Below are positions 1-15,758 of a DNA stretch of 21,445 bases, piece after piece (the stretch's first letter is position 1; every line of letters begins with the position of its first letter). Where the stretch lies: the IMG/VR virus record IMGVR_UViG_2698536428_000013, positions 1 through 21,445 of that record; one strand, given 5' to 3'. A model generated the notes under the pieces. That model made no database searches. It saw nothing but the letters and a program-made list of their open reading frames with translations, and was not told where the DNA came from. This DNA comes from a virus (Duplodnaviria; Heunggongvirae; Uroviricota; Caudoviricetes). The position numbers were made by a program, and so were the translations under genes.

Positions 1-1980
1 TTATGCTGATTCCCGGTTTTCGTTAACTTTGACTGTGACCGTATCAAGCAGTACCGGATACGTCGCTTTTGCCCCCGTGATATCTGTCAGCGTCAGCGTA
101 TCTGCTGTAAAGCCATCATTTGTCCACATCACAAGGTCAAACGCCGTCTGCTCTGTACCATCAATCACCGGAACGACTCTTTCGCTGTTATTTCCCGCAA
201 AGCGGAAAACAACCGTATGCCAGTTATGGTCAAACGCACCAAATGTACCCAGTTGTGCATTCGACGTGCCCTTGTGGTGCATAAGATTCAGATTTGATGC
301 ATCCGTCTGAAGGAAGAATGATGCCAGCATACTGTTTGCTGCCGCGCCTGACGCCCACTGCGACACCGGCCAGTAGAGACCAAAGACAAACTGTCCGTTC
401 ACCAGTTCGCTTCCATCCGGAATTTTGAACCGTACGGCAATTTCCCCCCCCTTGCTGAGAAAATTTTTTGCCTCCTCCACTGCAACAGTACGGAACATTT
501 TCCAGGACGTCAGTTTACCGGGCTGTTTTTCCAGTCGCAGCGCTTTCCGTCCACCGTCATCAGTCACAGTGCCTTTGCCGCCGGAAGCACCCCACTGCTG
601 CTCTGTCAATGCACCATTTCCACTGTTCGCATCATATTCAGCCACCGTCCTGGTACTGCTCACGGCCCCATCATGACCAGTACCAGCAACACCGCCATCC
701 TGCGGTTTCTCAACATCCGGTGTCCCCGGACTGACAGGAGTTGTACCACCCGACTGCGGTGCGCTCTGCCCGGTAAGGAACGATAATGTCCGCCCGGCGT
801 ACTGCAAAATGGCACCTGCCAGGCGGTCTGAAACAAGGCCTCTTCGCGCCCATGAACTGAAGTGCGTTTTACGATCGGCTGCCGTCCAGTTACTGGCAGT
901 GCGTGAGGCAGCGCCATAGTATCCCGCCGGGATAATGTCCGGATCTTCTGACGGCTCGTTTGTCGGCACATTCACACCATGCTCATCCGTCATCAACGGC
1001 ACAAAGTGAATATTCTGCGCAACTTTGCCTTTATACCCACCGTAAACCGCCTCATACGGCGCTGCATACCTTTCCTTCCAGTAGTACGTGGTATCACCGC
1101 AAATCCACGGGACGCTGGCCGTTGTCCCGCCAGTACACTGCTCTGCCACATCTGCCAGTTCCGTACGGAACTGATTTACCATGGCAAGGAAAAGCGCATT
1201 GTGTTCTGCATGTCTCCCCGAACTGACATCTTTTTCCCCCTGCATCCAGATCACCGACAACAGCACGTTTTTCGGATTTTTCTTCAGGGCTGCACGCGTT
1301 CTGCTGACCAGGTCACGATACAACGGTTTATCCACCCCCCACAGGGAAGATCCCGCTGTCGCACCCGACGCCTCATTAAACGCGCCCTCTGCTCCCGCAG
1401 TAAATCCCGAATCGCCACGTCCACACGGGACAAGAAGGATCCCCGCACGGGCAGGCATAAACGGCAGCAGTTTTTTGGCCACATGCAGGGCATGCCCCAC
1501 ACAGCCATACTGCCCTTTATTGAGGTCTGCTTTCGGGTGATTCAGATTACTCACGTCCTGCACATCATGCAGACAATGGTCTGCAGGAATAATGTCGTTA
1601 TATGCACAGGCCGCACCGCCCGGTGTCACCGTGCTGCGACGCGCCAGTTGCTTAATACGCGGGTCAGGACGATCATACGTATCCGGCAGCGGCAGCCCCT
1701 CGCCAAAAGACATCGAGTTGGACTGCCCGGCCAGCGCAATGACAAAGTAATATTCCGGTTCGCTGGTGGTGCTGATAACAGCGCCACCATCACCCGACGG
1801 TTGCACCACCACCGGTGTGGTGACATCACCTTCCGCCGCAATGGCCTGCATCAGGGTATAGGGCGTGATGGCCACCGGACTGCCAAATGGCTGCCACCCC
1901 TCCTTCAGTTTTTGAGTCAGTCGCTCCGCAAGGTCTGACGGCGACGCCGCCCTGACCACGTCATAGTGTTTAAATGTCAT
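1..1980 (-). CDS. NanS-p-like sialate O-acetylesterase (DUF1737-like N-terminus plus SGNH/SASA esterase domain), 659 aa
   Basis: Complete ORF with TAA stop at bases 1-3. SD GGGAGG lies 5 nt upstream of the ATG at 1980. GQSN motif (ALAGQSNSMSFGEG) is typical of SGNH hydrolases. The N-terminus (MTFKHYDVVRAASPSDLAERLTQKLKEGWQPFG) resembles the N-terminus of NanS-p esterases of lambdoid/Stx prophages. It sits late, downstream of Q. Confidence 0.6.
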   Translation of the reverse strand: MTFKHYDVVRAASPSDLAERLTQKLKEGWQPFGSPVAITPYTLMQAIAAEGDVTTPVVVQPSGDGGAVISTTSEPEYYFVIALAGQSNSMSFGEGLPLPDTYDRPDPRIKQLARRSTVTPGGAACAYNDIIPADHCLHDVQDVSNLNHPKADLNKGQYGCVGHALHVAKKLLPFMPARAGILLVPCGRGDSGFTAGAEGAFNEASGATAGSSLWGVDKPLYRDLVSRTRAALKKNPKNVLLSVIWMQGEKDVSSGRHAEHNALFLAMVNQFRTELADVAEQCTGGTTASVPWICGDTTYYWKERYAAPYEAVYGGYKGKVAQNIHFVPLMTDEHGVNVPTNEPSEDPDIIPAGYYGAASRTASNWTAADRKTHFSSWARRGLVSDRLAGAILQYAGRTLSFLTGQSAPQSGGTTPVSPGTPDVEKPQDGGVAGTGHDGAVSSTRTVAEYDANSGNGALTEQQWGASGGKGTVTDDGGRKALRLEKQPGKLTSWKMFRTVAVEEAKNFLSKGGEIAVRFKIPDGSELVNGQFVFGLYWPVSQWASGAAANSMLASFFLQTDASNLNLMHHKGTSNAQLGTFGAFDHNWHTVVFRFAGNNSERVVPVIDGTEQTAFDLVMWTNDGFTADTLTLTDITGAKATYPVLLDTVTVKVNENRESA

Positions 1981-2174
1981 GAATCCTCCCGGTCGGGATA
2001 ATGTTGTGAGTCAGATGAGGGAACGGGCTGAAGTCCGGAAGTTACAGGACAATGGCAGGAGGAAGACTACAGCCCGCAATACGAAAAAGGCCGCGCTATT
2101 GCGCAGAGTGATTACTGTCGGATATTATTCGCCAGCTGAAATATTACTTCACGTTTTGTTGTTTATTCCTTGCC

Positions 2175-2203
2175 GCCCGCGTCTCCCAGCGCGGGCTTTT
2201 TTT
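2175..2203 (+). terminator. Intrinsic-terminator-like hairpin (GCCCGCG / CGCGGGC, 8-nt loop) followed by T7
   Basis: A 7-bp GC-rich stem at 2175-2181 and 2190-2196, then TTTTTTT at 2197-2203, seen directly in the sequence. Confidence 0.4.
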
Positions 2204-2204
2204 G

Positions 2205-2233
2205 TCCATAAGAAAGCCCCTCCGGAGAGGGGC
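2205..2233 (-). terminator. Intrinsic terminator (GCCCCTC-CGGA-GAGGGGC hairpin, U-rich tail on the minus strand)
   Basis: A 7-bp perfect stem at 2216-2222 and 2227-2233 with a tetraloop. On the minus strand it is followed by TTTCTTATGG. It lies downstream of the TerB-like gene and small ORF. Confidence 0.45.
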
Positions 2234-2474
2234 TGGAGAGTGGCGCTATGTGCCATTGCATGGTGCCGGGTGCCTCCCGGTGAGTTCAGTATCAGCACCT
2301 GAACCCGCACAGAAAGGATAAGGGTCGGTGACAAAACACCAGTTGCTGATTGCCCCTCCGCACAGGGGGATTCACCATGCCAGTTTCTTTTAACAAACTC
2401 CCCGCAAACCAGACAACAGTCAACCGCCTGAATTGTGAGGTATTTAAAAATTTCAACGGGTAACTGATACCCTG

Positions 2475-2627
2475 CTAATCGCCTGATGCTTTCTTTTTCA
2501 GCAACGGGGAAGCAACAACCACCACACCCGCCACCAGCACACCGTCAGCCAGCACTGACATTATCCGGCTGCTGAAGTCCACCATCACCACCAGAAACAG
2601 CAGGAGCGCAACCACAGCCAGACGCAT
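2475..2627 (-). CDS. Small hydrophobic membrane peptide, 50 aa (MRLAVVALLLFLVVMVDFSSRIMSVLADGVLVAGVVVVASPLLKKKASGD)
   Basis: Hand translation of the minus strand. The ATG lies 8 nt downstream of the TerB-like stop, so translational coupling is possible. Two hydrophobic stretches and a KKK C-terminal tail. Absent from the ORF track, presumably because it is under 60 aa. No strong SD. Confidence 0.35.
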   Translation of the reverse strand: MRLAVVALLLFLVVMVDFSSRIMSVLADGVLVAGVVVVASPLLKKKASGD

Positions 2628-2635
2628 TTTTACCG

Positions 2636-3067
2636 TCACAGATGATTCTCCAGACGAAGGCCCAGAACACCGGCAATCTCTTCCAGCACCTTGCGCTCTT
2701 CCGGCTCTATTTCGCCGTCTGCTTCGGCAACGGCCACCGCCACATCCAGCACGTCTTCCGCTTCACGCGTATCGTGTTTCACATCCTCGATCTCACGTAA
2801 CGCCGCTCGACGACCAATTTTAAAGTTCGTATCCAGCTGACCGATAATGGTTGCGCTAATCGCATTAATTTCTGACGTAAACGCGGACAACGCAGGCTGG
2901 TTACGCAAGACCTGCTCGATCTTCGCTTTCTCTGAAGCCTCACATTCACCATCTGCATAGGCCACCAGATAGGCTGCATTAATAACCGCCTGTGCCAGAT
3001 CACGTTTCTCAAACTTTTTAATTTCCACTGCCGCTCGGCGGGCTTTTTTACCAAAAATACCAAACAT
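2636..3067 (-). CDS. TerB-like domain protein (tellurite-resistance TerB family), about 143 aa
   Basis: Start chosen at the internal ATG (MFGIFGKK...) with SD AAGGA about 8 nt upstream. Two ADG-containing acidic motifs (YLVAYADGECEASEKAKIEQVL and VAVAEADGEIEPEERKVLEEIAGVLGL) resemble the repeated motifs of TerB. It is the first gene after Q and the tR'-like terminator. Confidence 0.55.
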   Translation of the reverse strand: MFGIFGKKARRAAVEIKKFEKRDLAQAVINAAYLVAYADGECEASEKAKIEQVLRNQPALSAFTSEINAISATIIGQLDTNFKIGRRAALREIEDVKHDTREAEDVLDVAVAVAEADGEIEPEERKVLEEIAGVLGLRLENHL

Positions 3068-3197
3068 CGTGACGTTCCTTTGGGTGGGTGAGCCAACGCC
3101 CGGGAGCGATCTGCCCACAGAGAAAGTCACACTGACCACTCCGTAAGCTCACCCCCGAAAGGCTCTGTGGTTGATATGCGCCGGGCGTGGCGCAGAT

Positions 3198-3235: not shown

Positions 3236-3310
3236 TGGAGCGGGTAGCGGGAATCGAACCACGATAAGAAGGTTAACAGCCTTCCGTAATGACCTTTATA
3301 CGACTGACCC
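3236..3310 (-). other. tRNA-sized, tRNA-like element (probable degenerate or chimeric tRNA; not a confident functional tRNA)
   Basis: Minus-strand 75-nt segment GGGTCAG..CTCCA with U8, A14, G18G19, A21, a 5-bp anticodon stem GAAGG/CCTTC with loop CTGTTAA (U33, GTT, A37) and T-loop GGTTCGATTCC. The acceptor stem and T-stem do not pair. Confidence 0.3.
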
Positions 3311-4539: not shown

Positions 4540-5267
4540 TAAGCAGCCTCCCCTGTTACTTTCAGCATTCCGTTATCGAGCAGCTTTCTGGTCAGCCACT
4601 GTTGACCACGCCCGGTGATTTTTGTGGTGAACGATATCTGTATTCCGTGATTTGTGTTGACCGCTGTTTCTTTCACTGTGAAATAGCCGCGCTCCATATA
4701 TTCCTGCATTGGCACATTGCGCCGGGCACCTGAAGTAATAAGGATTTTGTGATCGCGCATCCACGCAAACAGTTTGTTTGGACCAATTCCAACAACCTTT
4801 GCATAGTTTCCAATCAAAATTCCGCTGGCCTCGCCAACGCGATCGGCAAACTCAACTTTAGGTGCTGCGAGAGCAAGCTGTTTCTCCAGTTCAGCCTTCT
4901 GGTCTTCAAGGTCGGCCGCAAGGCGCAATGCCTCAGAAAAGGTTTGTGGTATTTTCGCGGTTGCCCCTTCGAGTTCTCGCCAACGGTCAACAAGACGAGC
5001 GGTGAACTCTGGCGACAACTGAGCAACGACAATAATGCTGTCGCGCTTACCTTGTTCGCCCTCAAAAACGTAAGCATCTACGCCACGAAGTAATCCTAAG
5101 TTATTGATTTTTTCGAAAACCACCATTGGGGGATTTCGGATCACACCTCGAACCGCCAGTCGTTCAATGGATTGTTTCACCTTGTCATGACGACTTCCCA
5201 CCAACTCAGCGATTTCAATGCTTGTCATTTTGATGACGTTGCTATTTATCAGCTCGTTCATTGTCAT
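4539..5267 (-). CDS. Rha/Roi-family phage regulatory protein (antirepressor-like), about 240 aa
   Basis: N-terminal Rha-like motif ([23 protein letters not shown]) and nin-region position as for HK022 Roi. The start may be the second ATG (5261), which has better SD spacing. Confidence 0.55.
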
Positions 5268-5293
5268 GCCCTCTCATATTGAAAATTCAGCAA

Positions 5294-5319
5294 TAAAAAA
5301 CCCAGCCGAAGCTGGGTTT
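5294..5319 (-). terminator. Intrinsic terminator between the ORF6N-like gene and the Roi-like gene
   Basis: Minus strand ACCCAGC-TTCG-GCTGGGT hairpin followed by TTTTTTATT. Confidence 0.55.
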
Positions 5320-5335
5320 GTTAAGTTGTCAATTG

Positions 5336-6013
5336 TCAGTAGCGATGCAGTGAAGGCGGCAACTCTTTGCTCTTAAGCCTTACCCATGCGGAAAGATTCG
5401 TTGGTCCATCTGGCTCATTAATATCAACATCTCGTGTGTGATTGATTAAAACGTCTCTCGCCATTCCAATAACATACGAGAACTCATGACCGTAGTTGTA
5501 GCACCTGTCAGAATAGTTCGATTGAATTTGCTTTAGCGCCGGATACAGTTCGCGGAATAATGCCTGTGAACGGTTAGCATAATCCCATAGCCATACAAGG
5601 CTGTCTGTTTCTTTTGCGGAAAGCCCGTTGAGCTTCTTCTCTTGTTTGCCAGTATTTTTCTCGCCCTGGCTGAAATAGCAGTCTTCCAGTTTTTCGAACA
5701 CTTCCCACGCCTGATCGGTTTCGAGCATTTTTGCATGACGGGCTGCTCCGCGTTCTGTCCAGAGGATGAGGGAGCGGGCATTTTTACCAACTAACCCGAT
5801 TGTTTCGGGTCTGTTCTTAAACTCGCGTAATTCGTTTTTTTCAATTTTAAAGTAATGCTTTCCGGGCATGAATCGCGTCGTGTTGTTCAGAAAGTTATCA
5901 GAAATGTTTTTGATTTTTGTTCCGTAAAGGTGAGCCAACAGTTCAGTAGTAATTACGGGGATCTGGTTATAGGTAACAGGGGAAAGGTTTTCGACAGAAA
6001 TTTGAACAGCCAT
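5336..6013 (-). CDS. ORF6N/KilA-N-like domain phage protein (antirepressor-like), 225 aa
   Basis: SD GAGG 5 nt upstream of the ATG. The N-terminal segment ([23 protein letters not shown]...[15 protein letters not shown]) resembles ORF6N/Rha-type domains. Assignment is by motif memory only. Confidence 0.45.
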
Positions 6014-6176
6014 AATGACCTCGCGTTTCGATAATTTTTACCTCGCCACCGTCAGGTGCTAATCATCGTGGTGGCGAACTGTGCGGGGTTAGCACTACCG
6101 GTCGAAACATCCGGCGAGCCTTTCGGCTCCCCCACACAGCCCGCCATAAATCGCGAATGTGACTGTGCTTAGCGCA

Positions 6177-6198
6177 TAAAAAAACCGCCAGCGCGGTT
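6177..6198 (-). terminator. Intrinsic terminator downstream of ninE
   Basis: Minus strand AACCGC-GCUG-GCGGUU hairpin followed by a T6-7 run. Confidence 0.5.
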
Positions 6199-6288
6199 AT
6201 GCACCGTTTCGATATCCGGGGTGCTAATCCCGACGCCAGATTTTGCTGGCGCGTGAGGAATATAGCCCCGAATAAATCATCGCGTCAA

Positions 6289-6471
6289 TCACCTTGTTTT
6301 CCTCGCACGATGTCTTAGCCACCGGATATCCCACAGGTGAGCCGTGTAGTTGAAGGTTTTTACGTCAGATTCTTTTGGGATTGGCTTGCGTTTATTTCTG
6401 GAGCGTTTCGTTGGAAGGTATTTGCAGTTTTCGCAGATGATGTCGGTGATACTTCGTCGCTGTCGCCTCAT
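6289..6471 (-). CDS. ninE: NinE
   Basis: About 60-aa product [60 protein letters not shown] matches the recalled lambda NinE. ATGA overlap with the upstream methyltransferase gene. Confidence 0.65.
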
Positions 6472-6995
6472 GCCGCCCTCCTGACGCCCTGCCCGATCGC
6501 CATCAATGCCGCTTTGGATACGGTAGTAAACATCCGTCGAGGACTGATGAACGGTCGCCAAATCAGCAGCATGGAGCCTTTGCTGTTTCCCTTCTTCTCC
6601 AGCCATGTCGATGGTTCGATAAAATTAATCCGTCCATCAGTGATAATGCGAACTTCGTCGACACTCTCCAGAGCCTTGCTGAACCATCCGACTGACATAT
6701 CCTCTGGCACAAGCATAACTACCGTCTGTCGCTGTTGTATGCACTGCTCAGCGGCTTTTTCCACCCACGGCCTGATATTGCTGTACGGTGGGTTATTCCA
6801 GATTGCACCGTGGCTTACCCACTCAGAATTGAGCGCGTCGTCGGCCTCAGTTAGCCAGTGAGCACACAGAGCATTTTTGTCGCTCGCTGCCGAATCCAGC
6901 CAGAATCCAAACTCAATATCCAGCGCATCAAAAAGCCAAAGCGGCGTTTGCCAGCAGTCCTTGTCGTGTGCTGGCGTATTTGATTTGATAGTCAT
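6468..6995 (-). CDS. Phage Dam-like DNA N6-adenine methyltransferase, about 175 aa
   Basis: NPPY catalytic motif (WNNPPYSN). Start taken at MTIKSN, overlapping the ninB stop. Occupies the ninC-ninF position. Confidence 0.7.
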
Positions 6996-7432
6996 GCAGC
7001 CCTGTCTCCCCATCGCGCTTTCCATTCGAGAGCCAGTCGCGCTTCGTCCGACCACTTAACGCCACGCTCTGTACCGAATGCCTGTATAAGCTCTAATAGC
7101 TCCGCAAATTCGCTTACACGCATTCTGCTGGTTGACTGGCCTATTACCACAAAGCCATTCCCGGCAAGGTTAGGAACAACGTCCTGCTGCTTTAATGCTG
7201 CGGTAAACACACACTTCCAGCTTTCTGCATCCAGCCAGCGCCCATGCCATTCAACCTGACGAGAGACGTCACCAAGGCAAGCCCAAAGCTTTCGATTCTG
7301 GTCTAAGCTGCGGTTGCGTTCCTGAATGCTTACTACGATTGGTTTGGTTGGGTCTGGAAGGATTTGCTGTACTGCGTGAATAGCGTTTTGCTGATGTGCT
7401 GGTGATCGAATTTCAAAGGTTAGTTTTTTCAT
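6992..7432 (-). CDS. ninB: NinB (Orf-family recombination mediator)
   Basis: 146-aa product starting MKKLTFEIRSPAHQQNAIHAVQQILPDP, near-identical to the recalled lambda NinB. Confidence 0.85.
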   Translation of the reverse strand: MKKLTFEIRSPAHQQNAIHAVQQILPDPTKPIVVSIQERNRSLDQNRKLWACLGDVSRQVEWHGRWLDAESWKCVFTAALKQQDVVPNLAGNGFVVIGQSTSRMRVSEFAELLELIQAFGTERGVKWSDEARLALEWKARWGDRAA

Positions 7433-10981: not shown

Positions 10982-11980
10982 TTGGAAATCAGCACGGCGG
11001 TTATTCATTCCGAAGAAGATGCTTTGCGTTTTGTTGAGATGTACATCGCTGGGCAAGATCTTCCTGATGGAATATCATTTGAAGGGTGGCCTAACTTAAC
11101 CTTCCGTCTTACTGGTGACAAATTTCATGGCAGTTTGACTCCTTCTGTCATGAAGGGTTTTGTTGAAATGCAGGCCCAAATAAACCGAGCTTATGCATTG
11201 TTAAAGTACGGAGTTCCTGACCCAAGAAAGCTTTCAAAAGAAGAGAAGGAAGCTATCGAAATTCAGGTGAATGTTGAGAATGGCTCGTCCTTGATAGAAG
11301 TTAATATGGATGGGTTCATGGGTGAGGTTATACAAACTGCGGTGAGTAAAGTGGGCCCTCAAGAGATCGTTATTACAGTTTTAGGGGTCGCTCTTATATG
11401 GGGCGGCGTCGTCCTATTCAAAAAATATCTAGAAGACCGCAAAGAGATTCGCATGGCAGAAGTAAAAAGCGAGTCTGAGCGTGAACACCTTGCGACCATG
11501 CGCTTCATGTCTGAGCAGGAAACAAAACGAAGTGAATTATTGACTCAGATTATTAGCGAAAAACCCAAGCTAGACAACATGGAAAGACTTGCTCATGACG
11601 CAAAAACCGACATAGTTAAATCATTTGTCAAGGCTGATACAGCTCAGATTGATGGCGTTGTATTGGATGCAGATCTATCCAAAACCCTCACTACAAATGC
11701 AAGGCGGAAATCAATGGAGATCCGCCTTGATGGAAATTATCGCATTGAAAAGGTTGACTCCACTGATCCAGAGAGCTTCAAAGTGCAAGTGAGAAATGTT
11801 GACTCCGATCTAAGAATATCGTGCATAGTACAAGATGTTTTTCTCGACGCATCCGAGCATAAAAAAGCTCTTCAGCAAGCTGAGTGGGATAGAAAACCAG
11901 TTCATTTGTCAATCAACGCAAAAGAACTAGATGGTGAAATAAAGTCCGCGATAATACTTTATGTCAAAGAGATAACATAA
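10982..11980 (+). CDS. Unknown single-pass membrane protein in the rexAB position (candidate exclusion or defense gene), 332 aa from the TTG start
   Basis: ORF 70 nt downstream of cI on the same strand. TTG start has SD AGAGG at 7-nt spacing; the alternative ATG is at 11039. One predicted TM helix (EIVITVLGVALIWGGVVLFKKYL), then a charged, probably coiled-coil segment. Followed by the t_imm-like terminator. No resemblance to RexA or RexB. Confidence 0.6.
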   Translation: MEISTAVIHSEEDALRFVEMYIAGQDLPDGISFEGWPNLTFRLTGDKFHGSLTPSVMKGFVEMQAQINRAYALLKYGVPDPRKLSKEEKEAIEIQVNVENGSSLIEVNMDGFMGEVIQTAVSKVGPQEIVITVLGVALIWGGVVLFKKYLEDRKEIRMAEVKSESEREHLATMRFMSEQETKRSELLTQIISEKPKLDNMERLAHDAKTDIVKSFVKADTAQIDGVVLDADLSKTLTTNARRKSMEIRLDGNYRIEKVDSTDPESFKVQVRNVDSDLRISCIVQDVFLDASEHKKALQQAEWDRKPVHLSINAKELDGEIKSAIILYVKEIT

Positions 11981-11987
11981 TCCTCAT

Positions 11988-12013
11988 CCCGGCCTCAGCG
12001 CCGGGTTTTCTTT
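11988..12013 (+). terminator. t_imm-like intrinsic terminator ending the cI operon
   Basis: CCCGGC-CTCAGC-GCCGGG hairpin followed by TTTTCTTT. Confidence 0.6.
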
Positions 12014-12162
12014 GCCTCACGATCGCCCCACCTAAAAACACATAACCAATTGTATTTGTTGAAAAATAAATAGATACAACTCACTAAACATCGCAATTCT
12101 GATCTCTCGCCCTCCAAAGCAATACCCCAATTCAAAAAATAAATTCATATAAAAAACATACA

Positions 12163-12235
12163 GATAACCATCTGCGGTGATGAGTTATCTCTAGCGGTGT
12201 TGACACAAATACCACTAGCGGTGATACTAAACACA
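12163..12235 (+). promoter_or_regulatory. Left operator OL3-OL2-OL1 with PL promoter (rightward in this window)
   Basis: -35 TTGACA at 12200-12205 and -10 GATACT at 12223-12228. Operators are taccactagcggtgata, tatctctagcggtgttg and aaccatctgcggtgatg. Near-identical to recalled lambda PL/OL. Confidence 0.8.
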
Positions 12236-12296
12236 TCAGCAGGACGCACTACTCACCAGGGCGGTGAATATACAACGATTCGAATATGAATCTACG

Positions 12297-12440: not shown

Positions 12441-12824
12441 ATGACACGCAGAACTCAGTTCAAAGGCAATTCACGTTCTCGTCGTCGTGAGCGTTTAAAG
12501 GCAAAGGCATTAGCTAACGGCGTGCTGGCCCGCGAAGAAGCAATAAGTTCAGAAGTATTACACCGCCCTACTCTAAGCAGAGCGCAGATTCAGGCTAAAG
12601 GTACTCACGAAACGCCTGAGCGCATAGAAGACGCTAAGCCAATTAAGTTCATGGCACAGGACGTGATCTGGCAACAGAAAGAATACAGACGCAATCTGGA
12701 GCGAGCGGCCATTGTGTACGCGAATGAGTTTGGACATAAGCAACCAGAAACTGGTGTATGTCTTCCAAACGTAGCCATTTACGCGGCAGGCTACCGGAAA
12801 TCCAAACAACTGACGGCAAGGTGA
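12441..12824 (+). CDS. N: N-family antiterminator (P22 gp24-like), 127 aa
   Basis: Start at ATG 12441 with SD AGGAGG at 6-nt spacing. Arginine-rich N-terminus (MTRRTQFKGNSRSRRRERLKAKA). C-terminus AIYAAGYRKSKQLTAR resembles recalled P22 gp24 (..ALYAAGHRKSKQITAR). Confidence 0.7.
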   Translation: MTRRTQFKGNSRSRRRERLKAKALANGVLAREEAISSEVLHRPTLSRAQIQAKGTHETPERIEDAKPIKFMAQDVIWQQKEYRRNLERAAIVYANEFGHKQPETGVCLPNVAIYAAGYRKSKQLTAR

Positions 12825-12885
12825 CTTGTGTTGGTCGCCAGAAAATGAAATTAGGCAGCAAACCACTTATTTGAGAGGAATTAAT

Positions 12886-13509
12886 ATGTCATCAATCCGC
12901 TTAACTACGAGAATGAAAGAGGAAATCGCTCGTAACGCTTTAATTAAGTCCGGGGTGTTCACTGAACTTGAAGAAGTAACAAAGTTAAAGAACCAGCTTG
13001 CACTTGACGCCAGAGTTATTGCGTTTGGCGGTAAAAAGAAAACTGAGGAAGTGGATCAGTTATCATCCAAGTTGGTAGCTATAAGTGAAGAACTTGGAAA
13101 GATGGGATGTTCATTTTACTCATACGATGTTAGTTCTACTTCAATTTATCTGACTGTATCTGGCAGAAGGGTTGGATGGCATTCATATGGGAAAGACGGC
13201 AACGGCAAAGATATATTGCTCCCTACTCCGATCAAAGATAAATGCATGTTTGACGCAGAACACGAAATAACAAAAAGGTTTGATGAAATCTGCGCATTGC
13301 AACAAAAACTTGAAGCCAAGAAAAAGGATATCGAATCAAATGTATGGGCTGCTTTGAAATCAGTCACAACAGTTAAGCGACTTATTGAAGTTTGGCCTGA
13401 AAGCAAAGAATTGCTACCAAAAGAAGCAGATAAAGCAAGTACAGCACTTCCTGCTTTACGGGTAGAAGATTTGAATAAGATGATTGGACTTCCTTCCGAG
13501 GCCGCATAA
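12886..13509 (+). CDS. Hypothetical early-left protein, 207 aa, in the ral/sieB/ea10 position
   Basis: SD GAGAGG 6-7 nt upstream of ATG 12886. No recognisable motif; charged, probably helical. Confidence 0.55.
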   Translation: MSSIRLTTRMKEEIARNALIKSGVFTELEEVTKLKNQLALDARVIAFGGKKKTEEVDQLSSKLVAISEELGKMGCSFYSYDVSSTSIYLTVSGRRVGWHSYGKDGNGKDILLPTPIKDKCMFDAEHEITKRFDEICALQQKLEAKKKDIESNVWAALKSVTTVKRLIEVWPESKELLPKEADKASTALPALRVEDLNKMIGLPSEAA

Positions 13510-13643
13510 TCGGCCTTTATTTTTGGCATAAACAACAGAATAAACACTGCACTGTGTATTCATTCCAACGAGTGAATACACGGAGCAATGTCGCTCGTAA
13601 CTAAACAGGAGCCGACTTGTTCTGATTATTGGAAATCTTCTTT

Positions 13644-13668
13644 GCCCTCCAATGTGAGGGCTTTTTTA
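13644..13668 (+). terminator. tL-type intrinsic terminator (GCCCTC-CAATGT-GAGGGC plus T6)
   Basis: Perfect 6-bp stem followed by TTTTTTAT, between the 207-aa gene and cIII. Confidence 0.6.
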
Positions 13669-13733
13669 TATGCATACCAATAACGCTTCACTAGAGGCGT
13701 TTTCGTTATGTGTAAATAAATAAGGAGCACACC

Positions 13734-13874
13734 ATGCAATATGCCATTGCAGGGTGGCCTGTTGCTGGCTGCCCTTCCGAATCTTTACTTGAACGAATCA
13801 CCCGTAAATTACGTGACGGATGGAAACGCCTTATCGACATACTTAATCAGCCAGGAGTTCCCAAAAATGGATAA
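13734..13874 (+). CDS. cIII: cIII (FtsH/HflB inhibitor), 46 aa
   Basis: MQYAIAGWPVAGCPSESLLERITRKLRDGWKRLIDILNQPGVPKNG matches recalled lambda cIII, shorter at the C-terminus. SD AAGGAG upstream. Confidence 0.85.
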   Translation: MQYAIAGWPVAGCPSESLLERITRKLRDGWKRLIDILNQPGVPKNG

Positions 13875-13980
13875 AACACTTATGGCTATCCAGACTAAAT
13901 TCACTATCGCCACTTTTATTGGTGATGAAAAGATGTTTCGTGAGGCCGTCGAAGCCTACAGGAAATGGAGGTCAAAATGA
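13867..13980 (+). CDS. kil: Kil (host division inhibitor), 37 aa
   Basis: MDKTLMAIQTKFTIATFIGDEKMFREAVEAYRKW matches the recalled lambda Kil N-terminus. Overlaps the cIII 3' end as in lambda. Confidence 0.7.
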   Translation: MDKTLMAIQTKFTIATFIGDEKMFREAVEAYRKWRSK

Positions 13981-14173: not shown

Positions 14174-14854
14174 ATGGGAACTGCAACATTAATACTCGGT
14201 GAATCTGGCACCGGAAAATCAACCAGCATGAGAAATATCAATCCAGAGGAAGCAATACTTATAAAACCAATAGGCAAGCCGCTACCATTTAAATCAAAAG
14301 AATGGCTGGCATGGGATGCCAGAGCAAAAAAAGGAACCGTAGTTACCACTGACAAATGGGACGTAATAGTTGCCGTAATTAAGCGTGCTCACGAATACGG
14401 GAAAAGAATCGTTATTGTTGATGACTTCCAGTATGTGATGAGCAATGAGTTTATGCGCCGCTCAGAAGAAAAATCGTTTGATAAATTCACTGAGATAGGC
14501 CGCCACGCATGGGAGGTGATTAAGGCTGCACAGGATGCACCTGATGACCTGAGAGTCTATTTTCTTGCACACACCGAAGAAACCCCTATGGGGCGTGTGA
14601 AAATGAAAACTATCGGCAAAATGCTGGACGAGAAAATCACTGTCGAAGGCATGTTTACTATAGTTCTTCGCACCCTTACCCGTGATGACCAGTTCTTTTT
14701 CACTACAAAAAACAACGGTGCAGACACTGTTAAATCCCCAATGGGAATGTTTGATTCCAATGAGATTGATAACGATCTCTCTTTCGTCGATGCCACTGTT
14801 TGTGATTACTACGGCATCAATAATGTTCATCAAATTAAGGAAAACGCCGCATGA
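14174..14854 (+). CDS. Sak4-like RecA-core ATPase (AAA_24-type phage recombination protein), 226 aa
   Basis: Walker A GESGTGKST and Walker B RIVIVDDFQ. SD GAGGTGA upstream. Occupies the recombination-module position in place of Red. Confidence 0.6.
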   Translation: MGTATLILGESGTGKSTSMRNINPEEAILIKPIGKPLPFKSKEWLAWDARAKKGTVVTTDKWDVIVAVIKRAHEYGKRIVIVDDFQYVMSNEFMRRSEEKSFDKFTEIGRHAWEVIKAAQDAPDDLRVYFLAHTEETPMGRVKMKTIGKMLDEKITVEGMFTIVLRTLTRDDQFFFTTKNNGADTVKSPMGMFDSNEIDNDLSFVDATVCDYYGINNVHQIKENAA

Positions 14855-15438
14855 GCAACGTGATTTTTACTTATAACGAAGAAGCAGCACTGACCGCAGG
14901 GCAAGGTGGTTTTATTAACGAAACTGGCGCTCATATCATTACCATTACTGAAGCAGAACTAAAGCAATCAGAAAAAGGAGCCAAATTTATTGAGTTTTCT
15001 GGCGAATCCGACGACGGACGTAAAATCCAGTATCTTAGCGTTTGTGTTCAGAAAAATGACGGAACGGAAAACAAGTTTGGTGCAAATGTCGTTCATGCCA
15101 TGATGGGGTGTGTTGGGATTAAGCAGTTAACGCAACATATGGTTTCCGCCAGTAAATTTGTTGCACCTGAATTTCATGGAAAGAAAATCGGGTTAGTGCT
15201 CCAGAAAGTATTAACCACAAACAAAAGGACTGGTGCAGACAGCTATCAGATGGAAATACGCATCCCGTTTATTGCACAAACAGGTCAAACCCTTAAAGAA
15301 AAGGCAGAAGGCAAGCAACCAGAAACTATCACCAACATGGTTGCCCATCTCAAAGATAAAGACAATCGCTCTAAAAACGTAAGCCAGAATCATGCAGATG
15401 ATTATGGTTACAGCCAGAACGATTACCCTTCTTTCTGA
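14851..15438 (+). CDS. Hypothetical protein, possible Sak4-associated ssDNA-binding partner, 195 aa
   Basis: ATGA overlap with the Sak4-like gene. Functional guess is from synteny only. Confidence 0.45.
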   Translation: MSNVIFTYNEEAALTAGQGGFINETGAHIITITEAELKQSEKGAKFIEFSGESDDGRKIQYLSVCVQKNDGTENKFGANVVHAMMGCVGIKQLTQHMVSASKFVAPEFHGKKIGLVLQKVLTTNKRTGADSYQMEIRIPFIAQTGQTLKEKAEGKQPETITNMVAHLKDKDNRSKNVSQNHADDYGYSQNDYPSF

Positions 15439-15461: not shown

Positions 15462-15758
15462 ATGCCAGCGCCTCTGTATGGTGCGGATGACCCGCGCAAC
15501 TGCTCCGGTAGCTCCAAGGCGGAGGTGCTGGAAAATATCAAAAACAATTTCGACGCGTTTCTTGCTCTGACACCAGAAACAAAAGCAGAACGGATGTACC
15601 GACGCGATATACAACTCGCAGAAAAACAGGAAAAAGACCGAATAAACGAAACATCAATCCGACCATTCCGCAAAGCCACATATACCAACTTCCCTGAATA
15701 TATCGACCCGCGCCTGCGTAATTACCGCTCACGCTATGGCGCTATCAGTAATGACTGA
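15462..15758 (+). CDS. Hypothetical protein, 98 aa
   Basis: ORF in the PL operon with a weak SD. No recognisable motif. Confidence 0.4.
   Translation: MPAPLYGADDPRNCSGSSKAEVLENIKNNFDAFLALTPETKAERMYRRDIQLAEKQEKDRINETSIRPFRKATYTNFPEYIDPRLRNYRSRYGAISND

Follow-up and report, generated by a model that had tools for sequence, protein, structure and literature searches.

An Nmad5-family gene directly downstream of N in a lambdoid prophage: a candidate early accessory of phage DNA metabolism

Proteins of the Nmad5 family (Pfam PF18757, 'Nucleotide modification associated domain 5') take their name from M6/YuA-like phages, in which an Nmad5 gene adjoins aGPT-Pplase1 in a thymidine hypermodification cassette that sits in the replication region, 5' of DNA polymerase A. 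The family was reportedly named by Iyer et al. in 2013. The member considered here is a 207-aa gene of a lambdoid prophage, located at 12886-13509 on the + strand of a stretch of 21,445 nt that comprises positions 1 to 21,445 of the Caudoviricetes record IMGVR_UViG_2698536428_000013 and is referred to below as the window. The gene directly follows that for antiterminator N, and a first-pass annotation had described it as unrecognised and as suited to a counter-defence or host-takeover role.

Two bodies of experimental work bear on Nmad5. The 5-NedU pathway of M6 has been reconstituted in vitro from the gp51 transferase, the gp52 pyridoxal phosphate (PLP) decarboxylase, the gp53 radical-SAM isomerase and the gp54 kinase, and Nmad5 was not among the proteins used (PMC8989533). 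By its place in the gene order, the M6 Nmad5 protein would be gp56. The other work concerns Dhillonvirus mutants that escape the defence system Tmn: all carried K216E (phage SM_A8) or K296E (phage SMS22) in Nmad5, and reverting the mutation brought Tmn sensitivity back (Yamashita et al.; PMC11846954). An Nmad5 deletion mutant was constructed and did not escape Tmn when spot-tested; the gene was uncloneable and apparently toxic (PMC11846954). A related observation comes from T2, where RIIB, termed an early replisome factor, triggers Tmn directly and a RIIB variant is able to bind Tmn without activating it (PMC13001434, a 2026 preprint).

The window gene is a full-length, stand-alone member of the Nmad5 family and was already catalogued as such. 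Its product matches PF18757 with E = 8.6e-71 (238.7 bits, the curated cut-off being 27), residues 4-203 spanning model positions 1-206 of 206, and PHROG 1965, which is labelled function unknown, with E = 4.8e-83 (279.8 bits); NCBIfam and PADLOC gave no match. The gene is 100 % identical in E. coli LZSFT34, where its RefSeq/PGAP name is 'Nmad5 family putative nucleotide modification protein', the name that NCBI gives to Nmad5 homologues. The view that the protein carries no recognisable motif is thus superseded. Conservation lies at both ends of the family alignment, in the N-terminal motifs RLT...NA..K.G and R..LGG and the C-terminal signature SVTTVK.LLE.WPE..ELLP...LPA..V.DLN..IGLP, in which SVTTVK is followed by K or R. 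All were sought and found in the window protein, whose conserved residues are R5, L6, A18, R43, G48, G49, G93, T162, L166, W170, P171, E172, N197 and G201; N197 is invariant. In length, stand-alone architecture and C-terminal signature the protein agrees with the PF18757/PHROG 1965/PGAP family, and structurally nothing differs; it differs in context alone, modification genes not being near it. The family name itself is a neighbourhood-based prediction.

Nmad5 is common as well as known, and as first stated the finding is ordinary. Of 5426 complete E. coli genomes, 211 carry the gene, which is also present at 97-100 % identity in the phages PhiR12, SH2026Stx1, HK542 and Stx1a-converting phages; it is rare on plasmids (6 records). 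An exhaustive search recovered 855 clusters at 50 % identity, nearly all of about 200 aa (a profile search of genome contigs with a smaller alignment had returned 12 loci only), and the named hosts in the phage collection are all Proteobacteria. The best 120 profile hits are likewise of about 200 aa with PF18757 only, and a search among them for fused domains as a clue to function found none. Nothing useful was found in the literature on PhiR12, PF18757 and lambdoid anti-defence.

The explanation tentatively preferred here, though held at somewhat short of an even chance, is that Nmad5 assists phage DNA metabolism early on as an accessory protein and not as an enzyme, that lambdoid phages can do without it, and that some defences can detect it. 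Across the loci compared, what stands out most is that Nmad5 keeps company with genes of replication and recombination and not with counter-defence islands. For 94 diverse loci, a sample biased to one subfamily, neighbouring genes were called by a simple longest-ORF (open reading frame) rule and clustered. A recurrent module has the order unknown 300-aa protein, DUF2800 PD-(D/E)XK nuclease, Enc34-type SSB, Nmad5 and DNA polymerase A, with VRR-NUC further on; its genes all lie on one strand, with mostly short gaps, in the loci scored for order and strand. The complete DUF2800-SSB-Nmad5-PolA module is found in 36 of the 94 loci, and polymerase A lies within 8 kb in 50; with Nmad5 clusters as the unit of counting, the gene is found in a polymerase A context in 11 of the 31 formed at 70 % identity and in 6 of the 20 formed at 50 %. 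The M6/YuA-like proteins, which belong to the same family and are likewise encoded 5' of polymerase A, align to the window protein by tblastn over the C-terminal 40 % only. In the N4-like phages Pollock and KpCHEMY26, Nmad5 stands between thymidylate synthase and a gp42-like exonuclease, and genes for primase, a Sak4-like annealase and SSB come just after this region. Other contexts are a ParB-like protein with a helicase; RecT with a PD-(D/E)XK exonuclease and SSB; and the nin region, where Nmad5 adjoins dATP/dGTP pyrophosphohydrolase, DUF1367 and NinG.

The protein of about 300 aa that is encoded directly 5' of the DUF2800 nuclease (5164-6066 of locus L146 and about 35 other loci) represents an unannotated family without a Pfam hit.

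An AlphaFold2 model of the window protein, built on a 143-sequence alignment (mean pLDDT 92, pTM 0.83), is a soluble helical bundle with a hairpin and without a hydrophobic segment. Helices at residues 8-22, 24-47 and 50-72 are followed by a beta hairpin (86-100) and a long helix (127-158); two short helices (163-169, 171-176) come next, then a disordered linker at 185-189, and a helix at 194-200 closes the chain. A Foldseek search of the PDB with this model gave no hit better than E = 1.4, PDB chains searched with the single protein and with the 143-sequence profile yielded nothing meaningful, and a BFVD search returned only other Nmad5 family members. No solved structural relative was found. 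The invariant residues of the family are of the types R, L, A, G, T, W, P, E and N, and a conserved His/Cys/Asp/Lys set of the enzyme kind was not seen in the family alignment. Judged from the model and the conservation pattern, Nmad5 is probably a non-enzymatic binding protein that joins a conserved part to a variable middle (residues 51-125), the region in which substitutions among lambdoid alleles cluster. The window protein has a pI of 8.3 and a charge of +1.7 at pH 7 (family median pI 7.7); this charge, together with the lack of a structural match, rules out a DNA mimic of the Ocr or ArdA type.

Within the variable middle there is a local hot spot: residue 116 (window 13231-13233) is T in 34, N in 9, E in 8 and I in 8 of 60 close lambdoid alleles, and residues 71, 83, 99 and 123 are likewise polymorphic.

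The gene and its flanking signals, from the early-left promoter to cIII, are as follows.

12200-12228, + strand: PL-type promoter TTGACA-17-GATACT (promoter scan), upstream of N and the Nmad5 gene
12441-12824, + strand: antiterminator N, 127 aa (ORF list), directly 5' of the Nmad5 gene
12825-12885, + strand: spacer of 61 nt from N to the Nmad5 gene, containing the Shine-Dalgarno site
12873-12879, + strand: Shine-Dalgarno site GAGAGGA, 6 nt 5' of the ATG at 12886
12886-13509, + strand: Nmad5-family gene, 207 aa, ATG at 12886 and TAA at 13507-13509 (PF18757, PHROG 1965, PGAP name)
13498-13527, + strand: first terminator-like hairpin, G+C-rich, GAGGCCG-CATAAT-CGGCCTT plus T run, overlapping the Nmad5 stop codon (terminator scan, RNA fold)
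13554-13581, + strand: inverted repeat with perfect 9-bp arms GTGTATTCA (13554-13562) and TGAATACAC (13573-13581), within the lambda-homologous spacer
13644-13671, + strand: second terminator-like hairpin GCCCTC...GAGGGC plus T6, the hairpin itself at 13644-13661 (terminator scan, RNA fold)
13682-13701, + strand: third terminator-like hairpin, just 5' of the cIII leader (terminator scan, RNA fold)
13721-13779, + strand: Lambda cIII thermoregulator RNA element (Rfam RF01804, 88.5 bits)
13734-13874, + strand: cIII coding sequence (ORF list, lambda homology)

Most of what the first-pass annotation said of the locus is borne out: the ORF begins 61 nt after the stop codon of N and is supported as a gene by its selection pattern (below) and its 855 family clusters, its Shine-Dalgarno site is good, and the terminator and 9-bp inverted repeat placed between it and cIII are both there, together with two more terminator-like hairpins. 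The 9-bp repeat forms part of a 14-pair stem in the folded RNA, and the 236-nt stretch that contains the hairpins (13485-13720) folds far more strongly than its shuffles (z = -6.7). Between N and the Nmad5 gene, the 61-nt spacer has ordinary structure (z = +0.4), and the scan found no terminator-like site in it. Because no terminator separates N from the Nmad5 gene, early expression from PL, as had been proposed, is very probable; co-transcription with N from PL is most likely, since the first terminator-like hairpin lies at the Nmad5 stop codon. The N protein of the window is 99 % identical to the 'antitermination protein N' annotated in phage PhiR12_1.

The slot is that of lambda ral, sieB and ea10, as had been recognised. 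The oL/PL region of the window (11988-12267) is 90 % identical to lambda 35824-35550, and the sequence 3' of the gene (13512-13672) is 97 % identical to the ral-ea10 spacer at lambda 34082-33920; the Nmad5 cassette therefore replaces lambda sieB-orf28-ral. Window 13672-13969 then matches lambda 33522-33228, spanning cIII and kil, and ea10 is absent from the slot between N and cIII. Ral, SieB and Ea10 share this position in the PL operon and the spacer, but have no sequence similarity to Nmad5, and in lambda sieB lies on the opposite strand. The ral-ea10 spacer presumably holds the tL2 terminator cluster, which Luk and Szybalski reportedly described in 1983; in that case the hairpins would be ordinary lambda sequence outside the Nmad5 cassette.

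Downstream of the spacer, cIII is 46 aa long compared with 54 aa in lambda (window 13734-13980, +), and a kil-like ORF of about 37 aa (MDKTLMAIQ...) overlaps it; the C-termini of both are shorter than in lambda.

Behaviour in lambdoid phages was followed in 80 close relatives from IMG/VR, in which the 61-nt spacer, the Nmad5 gene and 131 nt on its 3' side move as one cassette. The spacer occurs at 82 loci, and in the majority of the 80 relatives it sits directly 5' of the gene, at -61; the cassette is joined to differing N alleles and flanked on both sides by inserted small genes that vary. Ral is encoded between N and the Nmad5 gene in 11 of the 80 loci and Ea10 3' of it in 15, giving the order N-ral-Nmad5-...-ea10; 47 of the loci encode Abc2 and 7 encode Gam. 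In loci with sufficient sequence, the recombinase 3' of Nmad5 was Erf in 19 loci, of the RecT type in 12, Bet in 5 and Sak4 in 5, with none detected in 18. These varied neighbours and co-occurrences indicate an independent mosaic module that substitutes neither for Ral nor for a RecBCD inhibitor. Nothing in these comparisons speaks for restriction alleviation, the protein having no Pfam hit or other similarity to Ral. A RecBCD inhibitor or modulator of the Gam or Abc2 kind is unlikely, there being no homology and Abc2 being encoded in the window as well, and a tie to one type of recombination module is ruled out by the occurrence of Erf, RecT, Bet and Sak4 alike.

Farther afield, Proteus prophages (about 45 % identity) again carry Nmad5 3' of an N-like gene. 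In Klebsiella prophages (58 %) it directly follows the repressor and heads the early-left operon, upstream of Kil and int; one small ORF separates it from Kil, the second annotated gene on its 3' side. Selection on the 64 nucleotide alleles from the 80 lambdoid loci is purifying but relaxed (dN/dS 0.31), and 3 of the 64 alleles contain internal stops. In the Stx2a-converting phage Stx2_EH1965 (O157, LC616032.1) an insertion sequence (IS) element with orfA of 108 aa and orfB of 296 aa on the opposite strand (1029-3025 of locus L182) splits Nmad5 after about codon 35, and 48 Stx2a records in the phage collection have the same partial-match pattern; the split gene is a natural knock-out. With these disrupted alleles, and with the deletion mutant constructed in a Dhillonvirus, Nmad5 is dispensable in lambdoid phages.

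On the 3' side of cIII lie the recombination genes of the window, and on the opposite strand, in the nin region, its one modification gene.

14174-14854, + strand: Sak4-like annealase (PHROG 2872, AAA_24), within 2 kb 3' of the Nmad5 gene
14851-15438, + strand: phage SSB (PHROG 743), within 2 kb 3' of the Nmad5 gene
15462-15758, + strand: Abc2 anti-RecBCD protein, within about 2 kb 3' of the Nmad5 gene
6468-7055, - strand: phage Dam methyltransferase, in the nin region, the sole modification gene in the window

The Sak4-SSB-Abc2 module stands in place of lambda exo-bet-gam, and the Sak4-SSB pair is common to the window and to N4-like phages, which likewise carry Nmad5.

The link to Tmn comes from the Dhillonvirus proteins (SMS22 CDS6, SM_A8 CDS7). 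SM_A8 Nmad5 is a true PF18757 member (E = 2.8e-55), and K216, the site of its escape substitution, corresponds in the alignment to R165 of the window protein. This position lies in the signature helix and is occupied by K or R in 109 of the 143 family members (76 %). These proteins are only about 24-25 % identical to that of the window, are longer (254-334 aa) through a large insertion in the middle, and have their genes in the head gene module, on the opposite strand; the Tmn genetics are those of the Dhillonvirus proteins. The RIIB proteins of T2 and T4 offer an analogy, in that RIIB and Nmad5 are both early phage proteins linked to the replisome and in both a single substitution alters the outcome with Tmn; RIIB is, however, a 312-aa protein with an N-terminal helix-turn-helix (HTH) domain, and homology between Nmad5 and T4 RIIB, a relative of the Tmn trigger, was ruled out (hhalign probability 0.3 %). 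By this analogy, Nmad5 would be a further early, replication-linked phage protein contacted by Tmn-type sensors, and its K-to-E variants may be non-activating Tmn binders; such a binder would explain why the phage gains from a point mutation but not from a deletion.

The Nmad5 signature SVTTVKRLIEVWPESK (residues 159-174, window 13360-13407) resembles SVDTIRRVLKNAEEAK, residues 36-51 of T4 RIIB, which falls in the N-terminal HTH match of that protein; at the hhalign probability given above the resemblance is not significant. That the signature helix could be HTH-like is a weak idea suggested by this similarity.

Put together as a mechanism, Nmad5 would be transcribed from PL together with N as soon as infection or induction begins and would act as an accessory adaptor of early phage DNA metabolism, in replication or recombination. 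Its conserved part (N-terminal R5, L6, R43 and G48-G49 with the C-terminal signature) would bind something that many proteobacterial hosts share, either DNA as such or a protein of the host replisome or repair machinery, and the variable middle would be lineage-specific. As an early, replisome-linked phage protein, Nmad5 could by analogy affect defence sensors such as Tmn. A more specific and rather doubtful form of this proposal is that Nmad5 constitutes a widespread class of early adaptors that dock on a conserved host replication or repair component, or on DNA through an HTH-like C-terminal element, and are watched by membrane NTPase defences of the Tmn type.

Several observations, beside the subfamily bias of the distant sample, weigh against an accessory of DNA metabolism. 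The opposite-strand insertion of Nmad5 in the head gene module, in Dhillonvirus and in Vibrio phage P23, looks more like the placement of a moron or accessory gene. The operon of the Klebsiella prophages has no phage recombinase, polymerase or recombination module. Nmad5 is freely combined with Erf, RecT, Bet and Sak4 modules in lambdoid phages and so cannot depend on any one phage partner; a dN/dS of 0.31, as estimated from these alleles, is relaxed for a core function; and no DNA-binding or known protein-binding fold was recognised in the model.

Some of these points would suit a dedicated counter-defence protein, made first from PL, that binds and blocks a host immune protein such as a Tmn-like YobI/KAP NTPase or an abortive-infection sensor, its nearness to replication genes being incidental as for T7 gp5.9 or lambda Gam. 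The N-to-cIII slot in which lambda has ral and sieB, the mobility of the cassette among N alleles and variable small genes, the moron-style insertions just described and the focusing of variation in residues 51-125 all fit such a protein, as does escape from Tmn by point mutation and not by deletion, which is what a Tmn-binding protein would show given that RIIB variants bind without activating. Wild-type Nmad5, however, gives Dhillonvirus no protection from Tmn, and the signature is near-invariant over more than 800 clusters and many hosts, when inhibitors of fast-evolving defences usually vary more. Synteny in the polymerase A and N4-type replication modules is kept over long evolutionary distances, defence-related models gave no match, the protein is not acidic and hence no DNA mimic, and it co-occurs with Ral, Gam and Abc2 instead of replacing them. 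Counter-defence is therefore judged unlikely, if still the most serious competitor: position, timing and, indirectly, the Tmn genetics of a distant homologue speak for the counter-defence or takeover role first suggested, but the linkage to replication and recombination dominates. A host-takeover or exclusion factor, whether a toxic early shutdown protein or an excluder of other phages in the lambda sieB slot, is improbable. It would accord with the apparent toxicity of the Dhillonvirus homologue, with a place behind PL that is repressed in lysogens, with the absence of lambda-type sieB from all 80 Nmad5-bearing lambdoid loci and with the nearness of Kil in Klebsiella prophages. The toxicity, though, is known solely from a homologue of about 25 % identity, as a cloning failure, and takeover leaves the placement in replication modules of virulent phages unexplained. 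Exclusion of the SieB type was rejected, SieB-type proteins being membrane proteins expressed from the prophage, when the Nmad5 model is soluble without a hydrophobic segment and the gene, behind PL and N, would be repressed in the lysogen.

The function implied by the family name, an accessory of DNA or nucleotide modification that for example targets or scaffolds a modifying enzyme, is the least probable of these explanations and is very improbable. It draws on the M6/YuA-like cassette from which the family was named, on the thymidylate-synthase-like gene that adjoins Nmad5 in N4-like and Yua-like phages, and on the Dam gene of the window. That gene, however, lies 6 kb away in another operon, and the 21-kb window has no gene for an aGPT-Pplase, 5-hmdU kinase, radical-SAM protein, PLP enzyme or glycosyltransferase; the aGPT-Pplase1 and dUMP hydroxymethylase-type genes that flank Nmad5 in M6/YuA-like phages are both missing, and the modification-gene neighbourhood, which is a contextual and not a sequence property, is absent here. 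Most members of the family, hundreds of lambdoid prophages included, likewise lack modification genes in their neighbourhood, gp51-gp54 sufficed to rebuild the M6 pathway, and Nmad5 has neither an enzyme-like fold nor conserved catalytic residues. Insertion of the M6-like cassette in the polymerase A replication region would itself explain the association of Nmad5 with modification genes. On these comparisons Nmad5 is probably not a nucleotide-modification protein, and its RefSeq name is probably misleading.

Other features of the window are noted briefly. A 332-aa ORF at 10982-11980 (+), between cI and PL in the slot of lambda rexA/rexB, matches PHROG 6191 (unknown function) without a convincing Pfam domain and is labelled 'T2SS GspM containing protein' in PhiR12; it may be an exclusion or defence gene expressed by the prophage. 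Rfam matches noted at 2204-2409 (-), 6067-6265 (-) and 3241-3310 (-) comprise the STnc100 small RNA (143 bits), isrK and C4 antisense RNA plus the a1/b1 targets of the latter in the region of the antirepressor genes, and a weak tRNA-like match (32.6 bits) that ARAGORN did not confirm. A NanS-p-like esterase (DUF1737, SASA and DUF6645) occupies 1-1980 (-), 3' of Q, and runs off the edge of the window, and a TerB-domain protein is encoded at 2636-3139 (-). A content of NanS-p-like esterase, TerB and Dam is typical of Stx-phage-like lambdoid prophages.

Nmad5 is common to Stx-converting, HK542-like and N4-like phages and to those with the polymerase A module, and it is among the few phage proteins genetically tied to Tmn. 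Knowing its partner would clarify a step of early phage DNA metabolism and could explain how Tmn-type systems sense phages outside the T-even group. If the adaptor-class proposal, doubtful as it is, were true, it would be this gene, lying next after N in the PL operon in about 4 % of E. coli genomes, that determines whether Tmn-type defences detect the phage.

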